Assembly: GCF_000153185.1 (NCBI RefSeq)
Contig: NZ_CH724155.1
Location: 29,678-76,452 of the forward strand
DNA from: Reinekea blandensis MED297
GTDB lineage: Bacteria > Pseudomonadota > Gammaproteobacteria > Pseudomonadales > Natronospirillaceae
Reading direction: 5' to 3'
DNA: 46,775 bases
The notes below the pieces were generated by a model. It did no database searches. It had not been told where the DNA came from and was given only the letters and a program-made list of their open reading frames with translations. Position 1 is the first letter of the stretch. Each line of letters opens with the position of its first letter. This document shows, one piece after another, positions 7,603-44,680 of this stretch. Position numbers and translations under genes: made by a program.

Positions 7603-8163
7603 ATGCGCGCAATCCTTCGAATAACTCCCTTGTTGATCATTTGTCTACAGGCACAAGCTTGGGATCGTGAACCAGCCATTGCGGCCTCCGTGGTCAGCCT
7701 GTTGGTTTGGAATCCAATGCAGTTAAACGGTGTTGGCTTTGACCAGATGAGTGATCATGATTTTGACCGGACTCGCATGCTGTGGCTTTGGGGTTTCGAT
7801 GACAGCATAAAAGAATGGGGATGGCTGACGTTGGAGGGTCATCTGGAACTGGGTTTTGGTCAAACGACACCCACCCCTCCCGACGTATCAATTGGCTTAA
7901 CCCCTATCCTGGAATGGACCGTTGAACGGGGTCCATGGCGGGGATTTGTCGAAACTGGTCTCGGTGCACATTACCTAACCCGAACCACGCACGAAGACCG
8001 CGATCTGTCGACACACTTCCAGTTTGGTGAGACATTAGGAGCCGGTGCCCGATACAAAAACCTACAGCTCAGTCTGCGTTTTCAACACCTGTCGAATGGC
8101 GATATCGTCAAACCGAATAACGGATACAACTTCTATGGCATCGCGCTAAAATTCTGGTACTGA
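7603..8163 (+). CDS. Outer-membrane lipid A deacylase PagL / acyloxyacyl hydrolase family protein
   Basis: Signal peptide MRAILRITPLLIICLQAQA. Beta-barrel-like alternating pattern, C-terminal HLSNG catalytic-type motif, and an aromatic C-terminal residue (FWY). Confidence 0.65.
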   Translation: MRAILRITPLLIICLQAQAWDREPAIAASVVSLLVWNPMQLNGVGFDQMSDHDFDRTRMLWLWGFDDSIKEWGWLTLEGHLELGFGQTTPTPPDVSIGLTPILEWTVERGPWRGFVETGLGAHYLTRTTHEDRDLSTHFQFGETLGAGARYKNLQLSLRFQHLSNGDIVKPNNGYNFYGIALKFWY

Positions 8164-8189
8164 CGCGATGCCATAATCTGCGGTTAAAA

Positions 8190-26490: not shown

Positions 26491-28482
26491 TTAGTTAACC
26501 TTGTCGGCTGGGGCTGGTGTCTTACCGGCCGTCATGAAACGCTGCATGATCTGTTGCAACATCGGACTTTCGGTTAACAGACCATCGATGGCTTTGCCCA
26601 TGCCCATGCCGGAGGCCATCTTGTTGAAGTAGTCGCCATCGCCACCGATGATATCGATGTTGGAGTTCTCGAAGGCCGAGGCCATGATGCTGGCCTGATC
26701 TTTGGAGATCTCTTTGTTGGCGTCCAGTTTCGCCTGAACTTCTGTCAGTGCGGCTTCAAGGCGCATCTTGAACTCTTCAAACTCACGCGCTTCGGTGCTC
26801 ATGTTGTTCATGGCATTGAACTTCGCCGTCAGACCATCGGCCTCGGCATTGGCACGCTCACGGATAACCGCTGAATCGGCCAGACCTTTTTCACGGCTCG
26901 CTTCGGCTTCCGCCAGGCCTTTCTGACGGCTGGCTTCTGCTTCCGCCAGACCCTGCTCACGCAGCCCGTTGGCTTCGGCATTGAGGCGCTCTTCCAGTAC
27001 TTTGGCCTGCATGAGCCCTTCTTTCTCGCGGGCAATGGCCTGGGCTTCGATGACACGCGCTTCGGCCTGACCTTCTTTCTCCAGCGCCTCGGCTTTCGCC
27101 GCCTGCACCTTGGCGGCCGCCAAACCAGAGGCCGCGTGCGTAGCCTGGTCGCCCTCGGCTTTCTTCTTTGCTGCTTCGGCTTGCTTGCTGGACGCTTCCA
27201 GTTCGGCCTGAGCCATCAGCTGAATTTCTTTGGCTTTGTGAACCGCCTGCTGTTCTTCGGCTTCGGCCGCTTTCACCTGCTTGATCTTTTCTTCTTCGGA
27301 GGTCGCTTCCGCTTCCATGATGCGAACCTGTTTCAGACGATCCGCCTCAGAAATTTCCCGCACCTCTTTAATGCGTTCTTCTTCTTCGGCGACCTTCTTC
27401 TCAACAGCGATGCGTTCAGACACGGTGTTGGCAATGATCTTACGCTCTTCTTCCAGGGCCTTTTCTTTGTCGATCCGTTGCAGTTCAACTTCACGTTCGC
27501 GGTTCACCGCTTCCAGTTCGCGCGCCTTAACGACCTTCTCTTCTTCGATCGCCAGGGCTCGTTCCTTGGCTTTATTGGCAATCTCAACCTGACGGTTTTT
27601 GTTGACATCCTGTACTGCAATTTCTTCTTCGGTACGGATGCGGGCTTCTTCCGACTTCAGTCGTTCTTCCTGCTGAACCTTCAGTGTTTCGGCTTCTTCC
27701 CGGGCTTTCAGCGTTTCCACTTCGCGCTTCTGACGGGCCACCGCATCGGCTTCCTGGCGTTCCAGTGCCAATAGGGCTTCACGCGTTTCAACATTCTTCT
27801 TGTTGATCGCCAGCGCCTGATCTTTTTCCAGACGGTTCGTCTCAATGCTTTGTGTGGCCGTCACTTCCGTGATGCGACGGATACCCTCCGAATCGAGAAT
27901 GTTGAACGGGTCGAGTTCTGACTTTGGTGTCTGTTCCAGGTAATCGATGGCAACGTCTTCGAGGACATAGCCGTTCAGATCCTGCCCGATCACTTCGATG
28001 ATCTGTTCACGGAACTGAATCCGGTTTTCGAACAGTTCCAGGAAGTTCATTTTTTTACCGACGGTCTTCAATGCTTCAGAGAACTTGGCATTGAACAGCT
28101 CGTTAACGGCTTCGCGATCAGACGCTCGATCTACGCCGATGGCCTTCGCCACCTTGAGCACGTCGTCCTGGGTTTCATTGACGCGCAAATAGAAAGCCAC
28201 GTTGATATCGGCCCGCAGATTATCTTTACAGATCAACCCGTCCTTGGCCCGCCGATCCAGCTCCAGGGTGATCAGCGAGATCTTCATGACTTCCATTTTG
28301 TGAACAACCGGCAACACAAACCCACCGGTGAAAAACACCTTCGGTTTGGCGGACATGTCGTTCACGATCATCGCATAACCCTGCGGGATCTTTTTATAGA
28401 ACGCATTAAACAGCAGGGCTAAAAACAGCAGTACGCCGAAGATAACACCGCCCCAGATTAAGATGGGCATGATCAGTTCCAT
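26491..28482 (-). CDS. Flotillin-like SPFH/Band-7 protein (YqiK-like) with an extended Glu/Ala/Lys-rich coiled coil
   Basis: N-terminal TM (ILIWGGVIFGVLLFLALLF), an SPFH domain, then about 350 aa of EA-rich coiled coil with internal 11-aa repeats (GLAEAEASRQKGLAEAEASREKGLAD). AAGGAG RBS 8 nt upstream. Confidence 0.85.
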   Translation of the reverse strand: MELIMPILIWGGVIFGVLLFLALLFNAFYKKIPQGYAMIVNDMSAKPKVFFTGGFVLPVVHKMEVMKISLITLELDRRAKDGLICKDNLRADINVAFYLRVNETQDDVLKVAKAIGVDRASDREAVNELFNAKFSEALKTVGKKMNFLELFENRIQFREQIIEVIGQDLNGYVLEDVAIDYLEQTPKSELDPFNILDSEGIRRITEVTATQSIETNRLEKDQALAINKKNVETREALLALERQEADAVARQKREVETLKAREEAETLKVQQEERLKSEEARIRTEEEIAVQDVNKNRQVEIANKAKERALAIEEEKVVKARELEAVNREREVELQRIDKEKALEEERKIIANTVSERIAVEKKVAEEEERIKEVREISEADRLKQVRIMEAEATSEEEKIKQVKAAEAEEQQAVHKAKEIQLMAQAELEASSKQAEAAKKKAEGDQATHAASGLAAAKVQAAKAEALEKEGQAEARVIEAQAIAREKEGLMQAKVLEERLNAEANGLREQGLAEAEASRQKGLAEAEASREKGLADSAVIRERANAEADGLTAKFNAMNNMSTEAREFEEFKMRLEAALTEVQAKLDANKEISKDQASIMASAFENSNIDIIGGDGDYFNKMASGMGMGKAIDGLLTESPMLQQIMQRFMTAGKTPAPADKVN
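26881..26979 (-). repeat. 3 x 33-bp imperfect in-frame tandem repeat inside the flotillin coiled-coil region
   Basis: Units cagacctttttcacggctcgcttcggcttccgc, caggcctttctgacggctggcttctgcttccgc and cagaccctgctcacgcagcccgttggcttcggc. They encode LAEAEASRxKG repeats. Confidence 0.6.
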
Positions 28483-30439: not shown

Positions 30440-30847
30440 TCAGCGCAGATAGGGTTCAAAAGCCAGTAATGCCTGTTGAGCATTTTCAGCCAGCGTTACC
30501 AGTTCGGTTGCAATCAGATGGGTATCGGAATCCAAGGCCAGGGCTCCGAAAGCGACGTAATAGTTTTCAACCAGCGCAAACGCACTTAATGGCATCGGCA
30601 CGTTCAGTTCAAGCAGCAGAGCGTTCAGTTGGGTTTCGCGGTCATCACGAATCTCAGCGCGATGTGCCAGGTAGGCAATGCATAAAATCTGGGTATCGGT
30701 ATGGGTGACAAAGATCGGAGGGTCATTCAAATGCTCCACTTCCACCCGCAGGACCGAATGATCGCCCTGAATCGGCATGCAATGGAAACGATGTCCCTCA
30801 AACTGACTGCTGTCGAGGAATGCGTTGAGCTGTTGCAATCGGGTCAT
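30440..30847 (-). CDS. YjfI-like protein (DUF2170)
   Basis: The C-terminal VENYYVAFGALALDSDTHLIATELVTLAENAQQALLAFE closely parallels the E. coli YjfI C-terminus (EEYYIVFGALSLKSSLEDILLEITSLVDNALDLAEI). Start chosen at MTRLQ with GGGAGG 5 nt upstream. Its stop overlaps the RBS of the next gene. Confidence 0.65.
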   Translation of the reverse strand: MTRLQQLNAFLDSSQFEGHRFHCMPIQGDHSVLRVEVEHLNDPPIFVTHTDTQILCIAYLAHRAEIRDDRETQLNALLLELNVPMPLSAFALVENYYVAFGALALDSDTHLIATELVTLAENAQQALLAFEPYLR

Positions 30848-30874
30848 GCCGCCTCCCTGGCTGAGCATCAGATA

Positions 30875-30953
30875 TTGACATAATATGTCGGTCATCCTGA
30901 CCGAGCGGGACATATTATGTCAAACAGTTACGAACGAAAGTGACTTTTGTCAC
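30875..30953. promoter_or_regulatory. Cluster of perfect palindromes in the divergent promoter region: a 15-bp inverted repeat with a nested 5-bp IR, plus a second 5-bp IR
   Basis: TTGACATAATATGTC (30875-30889) and GACATATTATGTCAA (30909-30923) are exact reverse complements. The 19-bp spacer contains GGTCAtccTGACC. GTGACttttGTCAC follows at 30940-30953. The arm also reads as a -35-like TTGACA fused to TAATAT. Confidence 0.55.
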
Positions 30954-33900
30954 AGCTTTTGAGTGTGTGGTTTCCATTTGGCGCAACCACCAGAAAGCCG
31001 TTAAGATCTGCCCTCCATGCTTCCAAGGATCGGGCCGTGTCCACTTCCGCCATTGCTGATGTCATCCGCTACTACCGGGATTGCTTCCAGGCGTCGTTTT
31101 TCTCTTCCGCCGGGTACGGCTTATTTGATCAGAAAGATCTGGTGCCTTTGGCCATTGCGCACCTGGATGACGGCATTCCCTGGTCGGAGCAATGGCAGCA
31201 GCAATATGTGATCGATGCCGATCAGGTCCATCTGATGCGCATCGACGGCATCACCTTGATTCCGGAACCCAACAGCGCAGCCACGACCGATGCCCACTAT
31301 CGCCCGTCCCGCGTCGCGCAGATGAACGCCTGGGCCGATAACCCCCAGGCCGAGCCGGACTGGGACGAGGAGTGGCAACAACAGTTACAGGCCGATACCG
31401 AACCGGCCCCTCAATTAACGGTGGCCTCACTGCCGAGCCTGTCGAACCTGGCCGACTGGTTGCAAGAGCAGGCCGAGCAATCCACGGAACGCCGGCAACT
31501 GGCCGTCAGTGTGTTGTTTTTGATGCCCAAAAACTTTCGTGCGACCGCGCACAAAGCCGATTTCGTTGCCTATCTCGACCGGCTGACCCACCAGCATCAC
31601 AACCCCGACAGTCTGCTGTGGCAAAGTCTGCTGCGACAGTCTGTTATGCCGGTTACGACCACACCGACGCCCGAACTGCCCTTTTTATCTCAGCGCCAGA
31701 ACCAGGCGTTGCACAGCGCCCGTACGCGTCGGTTTTCGCTGATCCAGGGTCCGCCCGGGACCGGCAAAAGCCGGCTACTCGCCACGTTGGCGGCGCAACT
31801 GGCCAGTGACAACAAAGCCGTCTTGCTGACCAGCCACAGCGACCATGCCCTGACCGTACTGCGGGAAAAACTGGTGCAGGATATCGGTCTTGATGAGCGC
31901 TGGCTGGTTCATATCGGACCGGGACGTCGGACCCGAAAGCTGGCCGAACACCTGTCGCGGCTACTGACCCGAAGTGACGAACCTGCGGCGCCCACTCGCG
32001 CGATGCCCGGCGCGTGGGCGGACTTCCATCGCAGCGAGACACGCCTGCGCCGGCAACTGGCTCGTGAACCCCAACTGACAGAGAACTGGCTAACCGGCGA
32101 GCTGACCGGTTCGCAATCATTGAAACGCCGATGGTGGTCACTGTGGCACCGCGACCATCATCACCTCAACCGCACCATCGATACCCTGCATGCCTCGGTC
32201 GATCAACTCGCCCGAGCGTTCGGTGCCGATCTTAACCGACAACTGCACCAGGCTTTTCAGTTTTCGCGGACTAAGAACAGTGACGCCTGGTCCACCTTGG
32301 CACAGCGCCTGAAACGCGGCAGTCTTCGCGAAAGCGTTGGCCATCTGAATCAGCGCCGGGACGATGTGTTTACACCCACCGATGGGCTGAAAATCTGGTT
32401 AATCAAACTGGATGATCTGCCCGAACAGGCTTTTGGCCTGTTCGACACCGTCATCATCGACGAAGCGACGCAGGTCAATATGGCGGAAGCCATTCCGGCA
32501 CTGGCGCTGAGCCGTCATGCCGTGGTGGCCGGCGACCCCCGACAACTTCGACATTACAGCTTTTTGAGCCGCGAACAGGAGGCCCGCATTGCCGGCAGCC
32601 TGAATCTGAACCCGGACGATGTCGTCAGCTTCCGCGACACCAGCCTGCTCGACTACAGCGAACAGTACCTGACAGGTATTTCAGCCTTTGATGCCTGCCA
32701 CCAGCTCGACGAACACTATCGTTCCGTGCCGCCATTGATGGATTTCAACAGCCGACAGTTTTATCAGGGCGATGTCCAGGTGCTGACCGGGCTGAATCAG
32801 GTCAACAGTCTCAAGCTGCACCTGAACTGGGTGATGACCGAAGGACAACGGGTTAACAAAATCAATCAGGCTGAGGCTTCCGTGCTTATCGAGCATCTGA
32901 CGCAGCTGATCAACCGCGAACGGAACCAACCGGTTAGCAAAAAAACGACTCTCGGGGTGCTTTCATTTTTCCGCGATCAGACGGAGCACCTGAAACAACA
33001 GATTCTGCAAACCTGTTCACTCAGTGACATTCGCGCGCATCAGGTTAAGGTGGGTACGCCCTTTTCGTTTCAGGGTGAAGAGCGCGACCACATGCTGATT
33101 TCCTGTGCTATCGACGATCACAGCCACCCCGGCACCTGGGGGTATCTGAATCAACCGGATGTATTCAATGTGGCGACATCCCGTGCCAGACGCCAACAGA
33201 CGCTGTTTCTGTCGGCCAGTCCAGCCGAACTGCCGGTTAACTCGGTGCTACGCAGCTATTACGATTTCAGCCGCACACCACCAACCTCGGCAACCGCACC
33301 GGAACAGAGCCTGCCCTGGTTACGACACCTGTTACCCGCACTTCAGGACGCGGGCTTCCGTACCCTGGCACAGCAATACATCGCCGACATCCCCATCGAT
33401 TTGATTCTGGAAGCCGATGGCCGGACGCTGGCTGTCGACCTGATCGGTTTTCCTTCCGAGGTCGGTCAGGCGATTCATCTGGACCGTTACCTGGCCCTGT
33501 TCCGCGCGGGTATTCCCTTGTTTCCGTTCAGTGCCCGGGAATGGGTCTTAAACCCCAATGGTTTGATCGAAGACCTGCTTCGCTGGGCCGGACAATACGA
33601 TCATCGACTATCGATGGAGTCCCCCAAGGAAACAACACCCGGCTCTGACTTCATTCCTGCCAAACTCTGGCAAGGGCTTTCTCGATGCCAGCAAAGTCCG
33701 GACGTGCAACAGGAGTTCACCGATGCTGAGTTGCAACTCACTGACCAGATTCACCGGCTTGAAACCCTGTTGAGCAGCCTCTTTCAACCCGGCTCAGTGA
33801 CGTATCTACGATATCAATCGGCTATTACCTCAGTGGCAGGTCAGACACTGGAAAACCTGGAAACCTACCGGTTGCTGTTCAGTCAGGTCTGGGAACAGGG

Positions 33901-35163: not shown

Positions 35164-37347
35164 TTAAGACCGGGCGCTCGGATCGGCATTAAAGGAACTG
35201 GCAGGCTGGAAACGGAACAGTTTCGCCAACACAACATCCGGCAGTTTTTCGATTTGCGTGTTGTAGAGTTCTACCGAGTCGTTGTACCCCTGACGGATCA
35301 AAGCAAGCTCGTCCTCGGATCGGGTCATCTGATCACGGAACGTCTTTACCAGTGAGTTGGCTTTCAAATCCGGGTAATCTTCAACGCGCGCGATAAAGGC
35401 ATCCACCACCTTATTTTCGAAAGCCAGCTGTTTTTCTGCCTGGTCCGGGTTTTCCGAATAACTGGATTGACCATTACGCAGTTTCACCATGGCGGCCATC
35501 AGCTTTTTCTCATGTGCCATATACCCCTGCACCGTCGTCAGCAATCTTGGCCACAGGTCATGACGTTTCTGCAACAGAGTGTCGATGTCGGCCCGGGTTT
35601 TATCGACTCGGTTCTTCAAGAACACCAACCCGTTGTAATGCAGGATGGCGGTAATCAATAACAGCAGCAACGGCACAATCAACGACACTTTGATCAGGTC
35701 CAGAGGCGTTAACAGGCCACTGCCGCTGAGTAACACGGTCCCCGCCATCAGGCTGAAGCCAAGAGCCAACCCGGTGAGCATGAAACCACTGGCGCCCCGG
35801 CCTTTCACGACCTCGTCTTCTTCCTGAGTGGTGATCAGGTACTCGAAATCTTCGCTTTTCTGAATGCTGAGCCGGTCGGCATCGGCATCGGCGATGCCGG
35901 CAAAGCCAAGACAGTAAACGTTGCGGAAAGGGGGTAACCAATATTCGGTGTAGCGCTTACGGCCCTGCCGATCGACATTTTTTTCAGGGTACACAATGTT
36001 GGCACCGGCCGGGTTTACCGCGACCTGACCCATCTCATCTTCAAGCCAGAACTCCGTCTGCGCTTCCCCTTCATCCAATGTCACCCACTTCGCGTTTTTG
36101 CCGCTGCCACGCCGCTCTTCAACGCAATAACGATAGGCCACACATTTGGCGCTGTTCAGCTGACTGGTCAGAAAGGGTTTACGGTCATCGACATTGATCA
36201 TGCCAAACAACTCGGCAATGCCATACGCCAGTCCCGTTGTTTGAGACGTCGGGACAAACTCCACCAGCCGCTTAAAGCGAATCGCTTTCAGCGCCAGCCA
36301 GATCAGCACCGCCGTACCCAAGGTTCCGCCGGCCGCCAGCACATAAACCACCCACTGCTGAGAATATTGACTGCCCGAGGTGTCCTGCAATCGGCTTTCG
36401 ATGCGCTGCTGTTCATTGGTCGACAAGGCGGGTGGTCGAAACGATTCATTTTCAGCCATACGGAACAACAGGCTGTCCGGCCATTGCGAAGCACTGCGTT
36501 TAATCAACGCATACATCGCATAGAGGTCTTCAATGGCCGCCGGTTCCCGGCTGGCTAATGCGCCTTCGGATCGTTCCTGATAGAGCGCCGCCGCATCTTG
36601 CCAATCTTTCTGCAGGTGAATCAGCCCAATACTCCACAGGGCAGCCAACAGTCCCAGCGTCATCACGACGACAAAAACCCAGTAACGATGAACGCCAAAC
36701 ACCACCAATGCCGCCGCCAGTCCGACTGCCAGTAATCCGGTCGCCGCGGAGATCAGCAGACCCGATACAAAGAGGGTGTTGCCACCTTCGGTCTGCAAGG
36801 TTTGATAGGTCACAATGGTTTCCAGTTCCGCCGGCATTCTCGACAACTCAAACGCCTCACGTTGATAGTCATACCAGGCCATCATCTGAATCATATCGCC
36901 GGGGCGAATCGAATGTTCGGTATAAATCCGGTCGCCGGATTTGCGCCGATACGTCTGCCGGGCATGCCATTCGATATCCCCAATGGCTCGGCCGGGGTTA
37001 ATCTGACGTTCGCTCAGGCTGTCCTCTAACAAAAAGGTTGTGGCGCTCTCGCCGGAATCCAGTGTCCGGGTTTTCCGGTTGCCTTCAGAGTCGGTGTATT
37101 CTTCTTCCAGTTTGTAATGGAAGTACACCACCCGGTCTTTGGCATAGGGAGTGGTGATCAGGGCGTTCTGTTCAGCCACCCGACCTTCAATGGCGTACAC
37201 ACCTTGCGTGACAGCATCCAGTGAGGACAACGGCAACCGGTCGAGCTGTCGAACATCCGATAACTGGGCAAAACCCCAGCGAAAGCAAAATAATGAGGCA
37301 ATGATCAGAACCACACTGAGCACTGCAAAGCCGAGTCGTTTCCACAT
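35164..37347 (-). CDS. LemA-family protein fused to a large duplicated N-terminal membrane domain
   Basis: The C-terminal 190 aa is a LemA domain (TM + NRVDKTRADIDTLLQKRHDLWPRL...YNDSVELYNTQIEKLPDVVLAKLF). The N-terminal 520 aa contains two similar modules. Each is a TM followed by an about 200-aa domain and two further TMs, resembling GIDE/DUF-type membrane domains. Start chosen at MWKRL with AAGGAA upstream. Confidence 0.6.
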   Translation of the reverse strand: MWKRLGFAVLSVVLIIASLFCFRWGFAQLSDVRQLDRLPLSSLDAVTQGVYAIEGRVAEQNALITTPYAKDRVVYFHYKLEEEYTDSEGNRKTRTLDSGESATTFLLEDSLSERQINPGRAIGDIEWHARQTYRRKSGDRIYTEHSIRPGDMIQMMAWYDYQREAFELSRMPAELETIVTYQTLQTEGGNTLFVSGLLISAATGLLAVGLAAALVVFGVHRYWVFVVVMTLGLLAALWSIGLIHLQKDWQDAAALYQERSEGALASREPAAIEDLYAMYALIKRSASQWPDSLLFRMAENESFRPPALSTNEQQRIESRLQDTSGSQYSQQWVVYVLAAGGTLGTAVLIWLALKAIRFKRLVEFVPTSQTTGLAYGIAELFGMINVDDRKPFLTSQLNSAKCVAYRYCVEERRGSGKNAKWVTLDEGEAQTEFWLEDEMGQVAVNPAGANIVYPEKNVDRQGRKRYTEYWLPPFRNVYCLGFAGIADADADRLSIQKSEDFEYLITTQEEDEVVKGRGASGFMLTGLALGFSLMAGTVLLSGSGLLTPLDLIKVSLIVPLLLLLITAILHYNGLVFLKNRVDKTRADIDTLLQKRHDLWPRLLTTVQGYMAHEKKLMAAMVKLRNGQSSYSENPDQAEKQLAFENKVVDAFIARVEDYPDLKANSLVKTFRDQMTRSEDELALIRQGYNDSVELYNTQIEKLPDVVLAKLFRFQPASSFNADPSARS

Positions 37348-37564
37348 TGTTTTTCGTTCCTTCTGGTCAATCGGCCATGGGAAGGGCATGATCTTGCACG
37401 CGGACGGTAACCGTCCAGTGCCAAAAGCCGTAAACCGGTCAGGACCTTTCCTCTGAGTCCTGATTGCCGGGGCCTGATAACACTAATTCAACCCTACCGG
37501 TCTGGCGCGGATTCATTACACTACGCCATCACGACCCAGTTCAACCGGCAAAGAAGGAAATCTC

Positions 37565-38317
37565 ATGACCAAACTCAGCGTCAACGTTAATAAAATCGCC
37601 TTATTACGAAACTCACGCGGGCACGATGCGCCCAACGTGGTTGAGTTTGCCCGACGTTTTATTGAGCTTGGCGTAACCGGCATCACCATTCATCCACGCC
37701 AGGATGAGCGGCACATTACCCGCCAGGATGCCCGCGATCTGGGCGATCTGATTCGCCCGTTGAATGACATCGAACTGAACATTGAAGGCTATCCGTCGGA
37801 AACCTTTCTGCAATTGATTGAAGAGGTTCGTCCCGACCAGACGACCTTGGTACCAGACGCACCGGACCAGCTCACCAGTGATCACGGCTTTGACTTTCAT
37901 ACCCAGGCAGAGTTTCTCGACCCGATCCTCACCCGTTTGAAAGCGACCGGAACCCGGGTGTCCGTGTTTCTCGATCCGGATGTTGAACAGGTTAAGCTGG
38001 CTGCGCAATCCAAAACCGATCGGATTGAACTGTATACCGAAGAATACGCCAGTCAGTTTCATCGCCCGCAACACACCGAGGTGCATCAGCGCTTTCACGA
38101 TGCTGCCGTTGAAGCCCAAAAACTGGGACTCGGTGTCAACGCCGGACACGACCTGAACCTTGAAAACCTGCCGGCATTTCTGAACATTCCAGGCATTCTT
38201 GAAGTTTCCATTGGGCATGCGCTCATTGTGGAATGCCTGGAATACGGGATGCCGTTTGTCGCGCGTCGCTACCTGGATATTTGCCGACGCAGTGCACTGA
38301 CCCACTCGGAGCAATAA
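37565..38317 (+). CDS. pdxJ: Pyridoxine 5'-phosphate synthase
   Basis: Collinear with E. coli PdxJ (LSVNVNKIALLRNSRG, GITIHPRQDERHI, VNAGHDLN, EVSIGHALI). Confidence 0.9.
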   Translation: MTKLSVNVNKIALLRNSRGHDAPNVVEFARRFIELGVTGITIHPRQDERHITRQDARDLGDLIRPLNDIELNIEGYPSETFLQLIEEVRPDQTTLVPDAPDQLTSDHGFDFHTQAEFLDPILTRLKATGTRVSVFLDPDVEQVKLAAQSKTDRIELYTEEYASQFHRPQHTEVHQRFHDAAVEAQKLGLGVNAGHDLNLENLPAFLNIPGILEVSIGHALIVECLEYGMPFVARRYLDICRRSALTHSEQ

Positions 38318-44650: not shown

Positions 44651-44680
44651 AAAAAAACGCCGGTCTTAACCGGCGTTTTT
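44651..44680. terminator. Bidirectional rho-independent terminator
   Basis: AAAAAAA-AACGCCGG-tcttaa-CCGGCGTT-TTT has a perfect 8-bp stem flanked by an A-run and a T-run. It serves the convergent + gene (ends 44629) and glnB (ends 44706). Confidence 0.75.

Follow-up and report, generated by a model that had tools for sequence, protein, structure and literature searches.

A paired 13-bp operator on the promoter of a PspA/flotillin membrane-stress operon, and a small operon-encoded candidate repressor

Introduction

What is controlled by the palindromes crowded between two divergent genes of Reinekea blandensis MED297, and which protein reads them? The region lies in a 46,775-nucleotide stretch of contig NZ_CH724155.1 (positions 29,678 to 76,452 of the forward strand; hereafter the window, numbered from its first letter), where a minus-strand operon that starts with genes for a DUF2170 protein and a PspA-family protein faces away from a plus-strand gene for a superfamily 1 (SF1) helicase. 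The original prediction had interpreted this region as a divergent promoter, tightly repressed by a dimeric regulator that might be trans-encoded or be one of the small unknown proteins. Its reading of the flanking genes is correct, with the DUF2170 gene starting at 30847 (minus strand) and the helicase gene at a GTG at 31037 (plus strand). Here we describe a pair of 13-bp operators that probably, if far from certainly, clamps the sigma-70 promoter of this PspA/flotillin membrane-stress operon, the most likely repressor being c1, a small protein encoded within the operon.

The operon is homologous to bacABCDEF of Pseudomonas aeruginosa (PMC10948618, PMC2587700), and its combination of CesT/Tir-PspA, band-7/flotillin, AAA+ and YqiJ genes is a neighborhood described by Ravi et al. 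2024 (PMC11237479). PspA operons of the yjfIJ/bac type influence heat tolerance in Escherichia coli and, in P. aeruginosa, both biofilm formation and virulence.

Results

Two 13-bp dyads overlie the predicted operon promoter

Among perfect inverted repeats whose loop is at most 40 nt, the longest in the window falls within this intergenic region. Its arms, TTGACATAATATGTC (30875-30889) and GACATATTATGTCAA (30909-30923), are 15 nt each, 100% complementary and separated by 19 nt, as originally reported. Arms of at least 15 nt appeared in 0 of 200 first-order Markov simulations, and the repeat thus exceeds chance. Each arm is also near-palindromic in its own right, containing the 13-bp dyad GACAT-N3-ATGTC, so that the feature consists of two operator copies, 32 bp apart, and not of one long hairpin. 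The 13-mer core occurs at only two places in the window, both of them here.

Each arm had been proposed to carry its own -35 and -10 hexamers, TTGACA and TAATAT. The two hexamers are contiguous inside the arm, and with a 0-bp spacer between them a single promoter cannot use them as its -35 and -10. One part of the proposal holds, in that the TTGACA of the distal arm is the predicted -35 of the minus-strand operon, but the adjacent TAATAT is not its partner, since the putative -10 lies between the arms (Table 1). The transcription start would then fall at approximately 30887 ± 3 on the minus strand. With the distal operator (O_D) over the -35 and the proximal operator (O_P) over the start, a bound protein would block RNA polymerase, which is a repressor layout and fits the repression originally proposed. 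This layout appears to serve repression of the minus-strand operon and not of the helicase gene.

The promoter emerged from comparative analysis; a consensus sigma-70 scan of 30700-31200 found no canonical promoter. Aligned with two further Reinekea-lineage contigs (DUF2170 identity 89% and 75%), the window retains both operators without change, and the segment GTCAGGATG, which holds the putative -10, is likewise invariant in the three sequences. Sigma-54 control was also considered. From the operators to the start codon, the operon strand has no -24 GG/-12 GC element with 3 or fewer mismatches, counts of the sigma-54 pattern across the window lay below the shuffle mean, i.e. were no better than chance, and no PspF-like gene was found among the neighboring genes.

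The operator pair is conserved across genera

With an alignment of DUF2170 homologues, 80 genome loci were retrieved whose proteins show 38-56% identity. Essentially every locus has a GACAT-N3-ATGTC pair 14-100 nt ahead of the DUF2170 start, and the genera represented include Kangiella, Psychromonas, Moritella, Pseudoalteromonas, Shewanella, Hahella and Ca. Endobugula, between which the DNA around the operator pairs is unalignable. For pair geometry we counted sites with at most 1 mismatch in 83 loci totalling 0.93 Mb. Of 200 such sites, 186 form 93 promoter pairs with a uniform architecture. A TT ahead of one site, the counterpart of O_D, completes a perfect TTGACA in 93/93 pairs; an xAxxxT hexamer (mostly TAnnnT) follows 16-18 bp past the TTGACA, between the sites, in 90/93; and the second site begins 0-13 nt after this -10-like hexamer in all pairs, which puts it on top of the expected transcription start. 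The two sites of a pair are 27 to 40 bp apart, with no conservation of the sequence between them.

A metagenome scan anchored on the paired-site pattern alone, and thus blind to proteins, recovered at least 120 loci. The pair stands directly upstream of DUF2170 in ~92 of the 120 listed (~77%). Taken together, the comparisons identify the arms as a genuine operator, judged by conservation far beyond chance in ~170 independent loci.

The scan also located the pair elsewhere. Among the matches listed, most of the other promoter-like ones precede membrane-related genes, and a few are unrelated tandem repeats. Pairs with the fused TTGACA stand ahead of unlinked genes, both of short YidC/60KD_IMP insertase paralogues of ~220 aa (L086, L116, L148, L155) and of others (L112, L113, L129, L147, L175) whose products are small multi-pass membrane proteins, a PLDc_N peptide and an alpha-carbonic anhydrase. 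In 'split' loci, where the YqiJ-like, flotillin-like and AAA+ genes run divergently from DUF2170, these genes carry an operator pair of their own, and some polyamine-module operons have a single site on a TTGACA. From this distribution the motif can be taken to mark a regulon, and the unlinked targets suggest a wider regulon for membrane homeostasis.

The remaining palindromes are separate from the operator

The palindromes had been regarded as one dense operator. The arms are operator sites, given their conservation; the two other palindromes do not belong with them. In the alignment of Reinekea-lineage sequences, the GGTCA/TGACC pairing of the spacer palindrome is disrupted in L083 (AGTCA/TGGCG) and is weaker in L084, and since GTCAGGATG nonetheless stays invariant, the palindrome is best regarded as incidental. 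The third palindrome, GTGACttttGTCAC (30940-30953), begins 16 nt past the second arm, and not 17 as first stated. It forms part of a CRP-like dyad in which 9 of 10 half-site bases fit TGTGA-N6-TCACA, centered at about -59.5 from the predicted operon start. Across the three lineage sequences the half-sites of TGTGAC-N4-GTCACT are invariant and the center is variable. The dyad is the sole match with at most 1 mismatch in the window, yet ~1 to 1.9 matches are expected by chance, and it was not found in the loci of other genera. For these two reasons the assignment to CRP is tentative, and the third palindrome may represent a separate CRP-like element limited to the Reinekea lineage.

A small candidate repressor accompanies the operator

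Clustering the open reading frames (ORFs) of the loci returned three core genes, namely DUF2170, PspA and c1, a protein of ~110 aa (109 aa in the window). The c1 gene is present in 79/81 loci, one exception being truncated and the other being L039, and in 47/47 motif-anchored metagenome loci with enough downstream DNA. In L039 (5700-8000), a Cellvibrionaceae locus with the operon type of L021, L025 and L026, c1 and every trace of the operator are gone, which reads as a natural co-loss of the two. Similarly, the E. coli yjfI locus and one Enterobacter locus have no c1 and no operator, even when 2 mismatches are allowed. Conversely, a minimal cassette in L094 (4341-4920) comprises an operator pair with its promoter directed towards c1, ~190 nt, the c1 gene (112 aa) and a rhomboid-family gene, with no DUF2170 or PspA gene within 6.5 kb.

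c1 matches no Pfam, NCBIfam or PADLOC family and is hypothetical in every source. Its structure model fits the ribbon-helix-helix (RHH) fold, a beta-alpha-alpha arrangement whose strands pair into a DNA-reading sheet, and contains two such units in one polypeptide. We therefore regard c1, with moderate confidence, as a predicted single-chain tandem RHH protein, and as the best candidate among the small unknown proteins that had been suggested as a source of the regulator. An 'RHH domain transcription factor' has been noted as the last gene in some CesT/Tir-PspA operons (Ravi et al. 2024, PMC11237479).

Several observations weigh against repression of this promoter by c1. The model is of moderate quality, with a predicted local distance difference test (pLDDT) of 70.9, and the RHH call derives from structure only. 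Profile searches of the PDB with full-length c1 and with its halves gave no significant match (E of at least 0.2, to unrelated proteins), aligning the N-terminal with the C-terminal half by hhalign gave a probability of 11% and an out-of-register alignment, i.e. no detectable duplication, and Foldseek against the PDB was not significant, with a best template modeling (TM) score of 0.48 to single-chain Arc. Because confirmation at the sequence level failed and Foldseek was not significant, confidence in the fold is only moderate. The link between c1 and the motif may partly reflect shared ancestry, since the c1-less loci examined number three (E. coli, Enterobacter and L039) and represent two lineages; a further protein search gave only close enterobacterial relatives. 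The strict consensus scan did not call the -10 in Reinekea, which is weak. Operator pairs also stand at unlinked genes, and the binder could accordingly be encoded elsewhere. Finally, the P. aeruginosa bac operon is without c1 according to the literature, yet mutation of bacA de-represses it (PMC10948618, PMC2587700), which indicates that other control layers exist in the system.

Covariation between the predicted DNA-reading strand and the operator was considered and is not counted as evidence. L024 and L028 are the only loci with degenerate half-sites (GACAG/GACAA and TTGTC) and the only ones whose c1 has RLTVTF, not RLT(I/V)SL, in predicted strand 2. The two loci represent one lineage, and Pseudoalteromonas c1, with RQRLSFNL, keeps canonical operators.

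Less likely readings: a binder encoded elsewhere, control shared with the helicase, or a nucleic-acid structure

Some of these points would suit an arrangement in which operators and promoter are as described, the binder is a regulator encoded elsewhere and c1 has another role. The same pair precedes unlinked genes (YidC-family paralogues, small membrane proteins, carbonic anhydrase), the RHH call for c1 comes from a medium-confidence model, and the bac operon is under negative control although c1 is missing there (PMC10948618). We nevertheless consider this arrangement unlikely, if worth serious attention. Every testable locus with the motif also has c1, the two were lost together in L039 and are both absent from the enterobacteria, the pair in L094 drives c1 itself in a locus devoid of DUF2170, and no other DNA-binding gene is conserved in the neighborhoods of the clustered loci.

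The divergent arrangement raises another question, namely whether the palindrome cluster is a shared control region that represses operon and helicase through one array. In its favor, three Reinekea-lineage genomes have the helicase gene next to the operon in divergent orientation, the symmetric arms present TTGACA on both strands, and the CRP-like dyad sits between the two predicted promoters. Adjacency of helicase and operon is confined to that lineage, however; the helicase forms a singleton cluster among 81 loci, and the operator pair persists in the other 80, where it serves the DUF2170 operon, as it serves other membrane-protein genes elsewhere. On the plus strand, moreover, no -10-like hexamer occurs 16-18 bp past TTGACA, the positions being occupied by TGACCG and GACCGA. 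The limited adjacency and the missing plus-strand -10 make joint control of the helicase unlikely. The helicase gene also appears to have a promoter block of its own (30978-31007), ~55-85 bp from the nearest (distal) operator, and relative to the start predicted from this block the operators would lie at roughly -90 to -140. The segment AAAGCCGTTAAGATC (30995-31009), which overlaps this block, is conserved in the lineage, with TAATAT at the -10 position in L083. We thus find a shared control region improbable, and the description of the region as a divergent promoter is not supported.

That the repeat works as a nucleic-acid structure (a cruciform, RNA hairpin, terminator or REP-like (repetitive extragenic palindromic) or mobile repeat) has next to no credibility: perfect 15-nt arms could form a long hairpin and a terminator scan flagged short stem-loops in the region, but each arm is a palindrome by itself, something a hairpin does not need, arm spacing varies over 27-40 bp with an unconserved spacer, the distal ATGTC changes to ATGAC, ATGCC or ATGGC in Psychromonas without compensating proximal change, and, with the distal arm upstream of the predicted start, the arms would not share a transcript. 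The flagged stems are 5-7 bp long and lie between divergent 5' ends, where no gene ends on either strand, and Rfam at a permissive threshold found no RNA family in the region. As for a REP-like element, the alternative raised in the original prediction, the motif has two copies in 46.8 kb, with 186/200 sites in promoter pairs across the 0.93 Mb of related loci and metagenome matches mostly upstream of DUF2170; on these counts it is no REP element.

Features of the locus and neighboring genes

The coordinates of the operator region and the adjoining genes are collected in Table 1. The DUF2170 protein is 100% identical to a R. blandensis protein. DUF2170 proteins have a CesT/Tir chaperone-like fold (PMC10948618, PMC11237479), and the CesT/ExsC-like chaperone is predicted to bind its PspA homologue (PMC13092808). 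Gene calling gave the ORF for the acidic 79-aa protein in L001 (identical to the window), L083 and L084, the Reinekea-lineage contigs that were examined, and only there. The c9 gene heads the divergent operon of the 'split' loci. In the flotillin-like gene a strong AT skew of -0.41 at 27001-28000 shows the coding strand to be very rich in A over T; this stretch presumably encodes a charged coiled-coil segment.

Table 1. Operator, promoter and gene features at the locus, in window coordinates.
Feature	Position	Strand	Remarks
DUF3686 + DUF7902 + AAA+ ATPase, cluster c10, 1743 aa	21152..26383	-	Pfam PF12458, E = 3e-191, and AAA_5; last large gene of the operon; conserved neighbor
Band-7/flotillin-like protein, cluster c7, 663 aa	26491..28482	-	Weak Pfam Flot and NCBIfam FloT matches; conserved neighbor
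Membrane protein, cluster c9, 208 aa	28531..29157	-	No Pfam match; YqiJ/NfeD-like per literature (PMC11237479)
c1, candidate repressor, 109 aa	29159..29488	-	Predicted beta-alpha-alpha twice (tandem RHH); no Pfam/NCBIfam family
Acidic protein, 79 aa	29496..29735	-	No protein-family match; overlaps 3' end of PspA gene by 14 nt
PspA/IM30-family protein, YjfJ/BacB-like, 234 aa	29722..30426	-	Pfam PF04012
DUF2170/YjfI/BacA-like protein, 135 aa	30440..30847	-	First gene of the operon; Pfam PF09938, E = 3e-30
Ribosome-binding site GGGAGG	30852..30857	-	4 nt ahead of ATG 30847; invariant in lineage alignment
Proximal operator O_P	30877..30889	.	GACATAATATGTC on plus strand; begins 4 nt past putative -10
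Spacer palindrome	30890-30902	.	GGTCAtccTGACC; incidental; core GTCAGGATG alone conserved, holds putative -10
Putative -10 CAGGAT	30894..30899	-	18 bp past -35; weak, A2 and T6 retained; within GTCAGGATG
Distal operator O_D	30909..30921	.	GACATATTATGTC on plus strand; GACAT-N3-ATGTC; overlaps operon -35
-35 TTGACA of operon promoter	30918..30923	-	Fused to operator flank in 93/93 pairs
CRP-like dyad	30939..30954	.	AGTGACTTTTGTCACA on plus strand; operon strand TGTGA-N6-TCACT; includes GTGACttttGTCAC
Putative helicase promoter	30978..31007	+	-35 TTGGCG 30978-30983, 18-bp spacer, -10 TAAGAT 31002-31007
SF1 (Upf1-like) helicase, 1015 aa	31037..34084	+	GTG start; Pfam AAA_11/AAA_12; divergent

The N-terminal ~215 aa of the helicase match no family. 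A role in a defense system was considered and rejected, as only the generic SF1 core resembles MkoA (Mokosh), Hhe and ProA, far below the cut-offs. Two genes beyond the helicase, a 741-aa protein (35164-37389, minus strand) joins a GIDE (E3-ligase-like) region to a C-terminal LemA domain, an unusual fusion. Further perfect inverted repeats of the window lie at 38186-38243 (13-nt arms ATTCCAGGCATTC/GAATGCCTGGAAT, 32-nt loop) and 8134-8175 (12-nt arms TATGGCATCGCG/CGCGATGCCATA), and a terminator-like repeat, AAAAACGCCGGT and ACCGGCGTTTTT separated by 4 nt, lies at 44653-44680.

Discussion

Conservation of the operator, the geometry of the promoter and the co-occurrence of operator and c1 were each established by comparing sequences, and together they suggest how the operon might be controlled. 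A protein occupying both dyads would block RNA polymerase at the -35 and at the start. If that protein is c1, two molecules would bind each dyad, each a pseudo-dimer reading one GACAT half-site; the half-site centers are 8 bp apart, comparable to MetJ dimers on adjacent metboxes. As its gene lies in the operon, c1 would repress its own synthesis, a form of negative autoregulation. A membrane-stress signal would then release repression, possibly relayed through DUF2170 or PspA. A partner-switch relay through the DUF2170 protein is conceivable, given its CesT-like fold, its predicted binding to PspA and the de-repression of bac upon loss of bacA, but is pure speculation.

In a broader sense, c1 and the GACAT-N3-ATGTC pairs may constitute a previously uncharacterized and widely conserved control of PspA/ESCRT-III-type membrane-stress systems in marine Gammaproteobacteria, distinct from PspF/sigma-54, LiaRS, ClgR and PadR. 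The regulon would join the YjfI-YjfJ dyad to the flotillin/YqiJ/AAA+ module, to a polyamine-synthase module and to unlinked genes, a short YidC-family insertase paralogue among them, with the CesT-like DUF2170 protein or PspA perhaps informing the repressor of membrane damage. We hold this wider proposal to be evenly balanced between right and wrong. In the searchable literature, the RHH gene is mentioned only by Ravi et al., and the operator and promoter are described in no paper. An autoregulated RHH repressor with dyad operators is a standard mechanism; the family, the motif and the regulon are uncharacterized. The marine-gammaproteobacterial version of these operons now has a precise operator, a promoter model and a named candidate repressor, and a likely function can be proposed for a protein family of >300 members left without family annotation by every database searched. 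With the motif, members of the regulon can be listed for any genome, and the regulon appears to include a YidC-family paralogue and polyamine genes.

How does this arrangement compare with known systems? Autorepressors of the Arc/Mnt, CopG and MetJ type are RHH proteins that act on dyad or repeated operators over the promoter. Like them, c1 is a small predicted beta-alpha-alpha protein whose gene lies inside the operon that it would control, and dyads of 5-bp half-sites cover the -35 and the start in 93/93 pairs; like the metboxes of MetJ, the half-sites GACAT and ATGTC are short repeats with centers 8 bp apart. Unlike Arc, CopG and MetJ, c1 would have two RHH units per chain instead of forming a homodimer, has no detectable similarity to any Pfam RHH family, and would control a chromosomal membrane-stress regulon and not a phage, plasmid-copy or methionine circuit. 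Known single-chain tandem RHH proteins include TraY, AvtR (from an archaeal virus) and VirC2; their identity to c1 is only 13-15%. TraY (F plasmid) and VirC2 (Ti plasmid) are accessory factors of the relaxosome and of T-DNA transfer on asymmetric oriT and overdrive sites, whereas c1 would act on perfect dyads and repress by occluding the promoter. Elements of the REP/BIME (bacterial interspersed mosaic element) type share the palindromic character and intergenic location of the pair; unlike them, it is AT-rich, present in exactly two copies fused to a promoter, and position-specific across genera instead of dispersed.

Among the closest relatives of the operon, bacABCDEF of P. aeruginosa and yjfIJKLMC of E. 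coli share its DUF2170-PspA core, and bac also has YqiJ-like, flotillin-like and large ATPase genes (PMC10948618, PMC2587700, PMC11237479). Both differ in having no c1, and E. coli and Enterobacter have no GACAT-N3-ATGTC upstream. A sigma-54 site has been proposed for the bac operon, and loss of 1 nt from the promoter activates yjfIJKL in E. coli (PMC12492005). Compared with PspF/sigma-54 control of E. coli pspABC, and with LiaRS, ClgR and PadR-like/HAAS systems, the output is the same, a PspA/ESCRT-III-like protein and its membrane partners induced on demand. Unlike the PspF/sigma-54 system, however, the operon described here has no adjacent PspF, its predicted promoter is of the sigma-70 type with a perfect -35, and its control would proceed by repression instead of enhancer-dependent activation.

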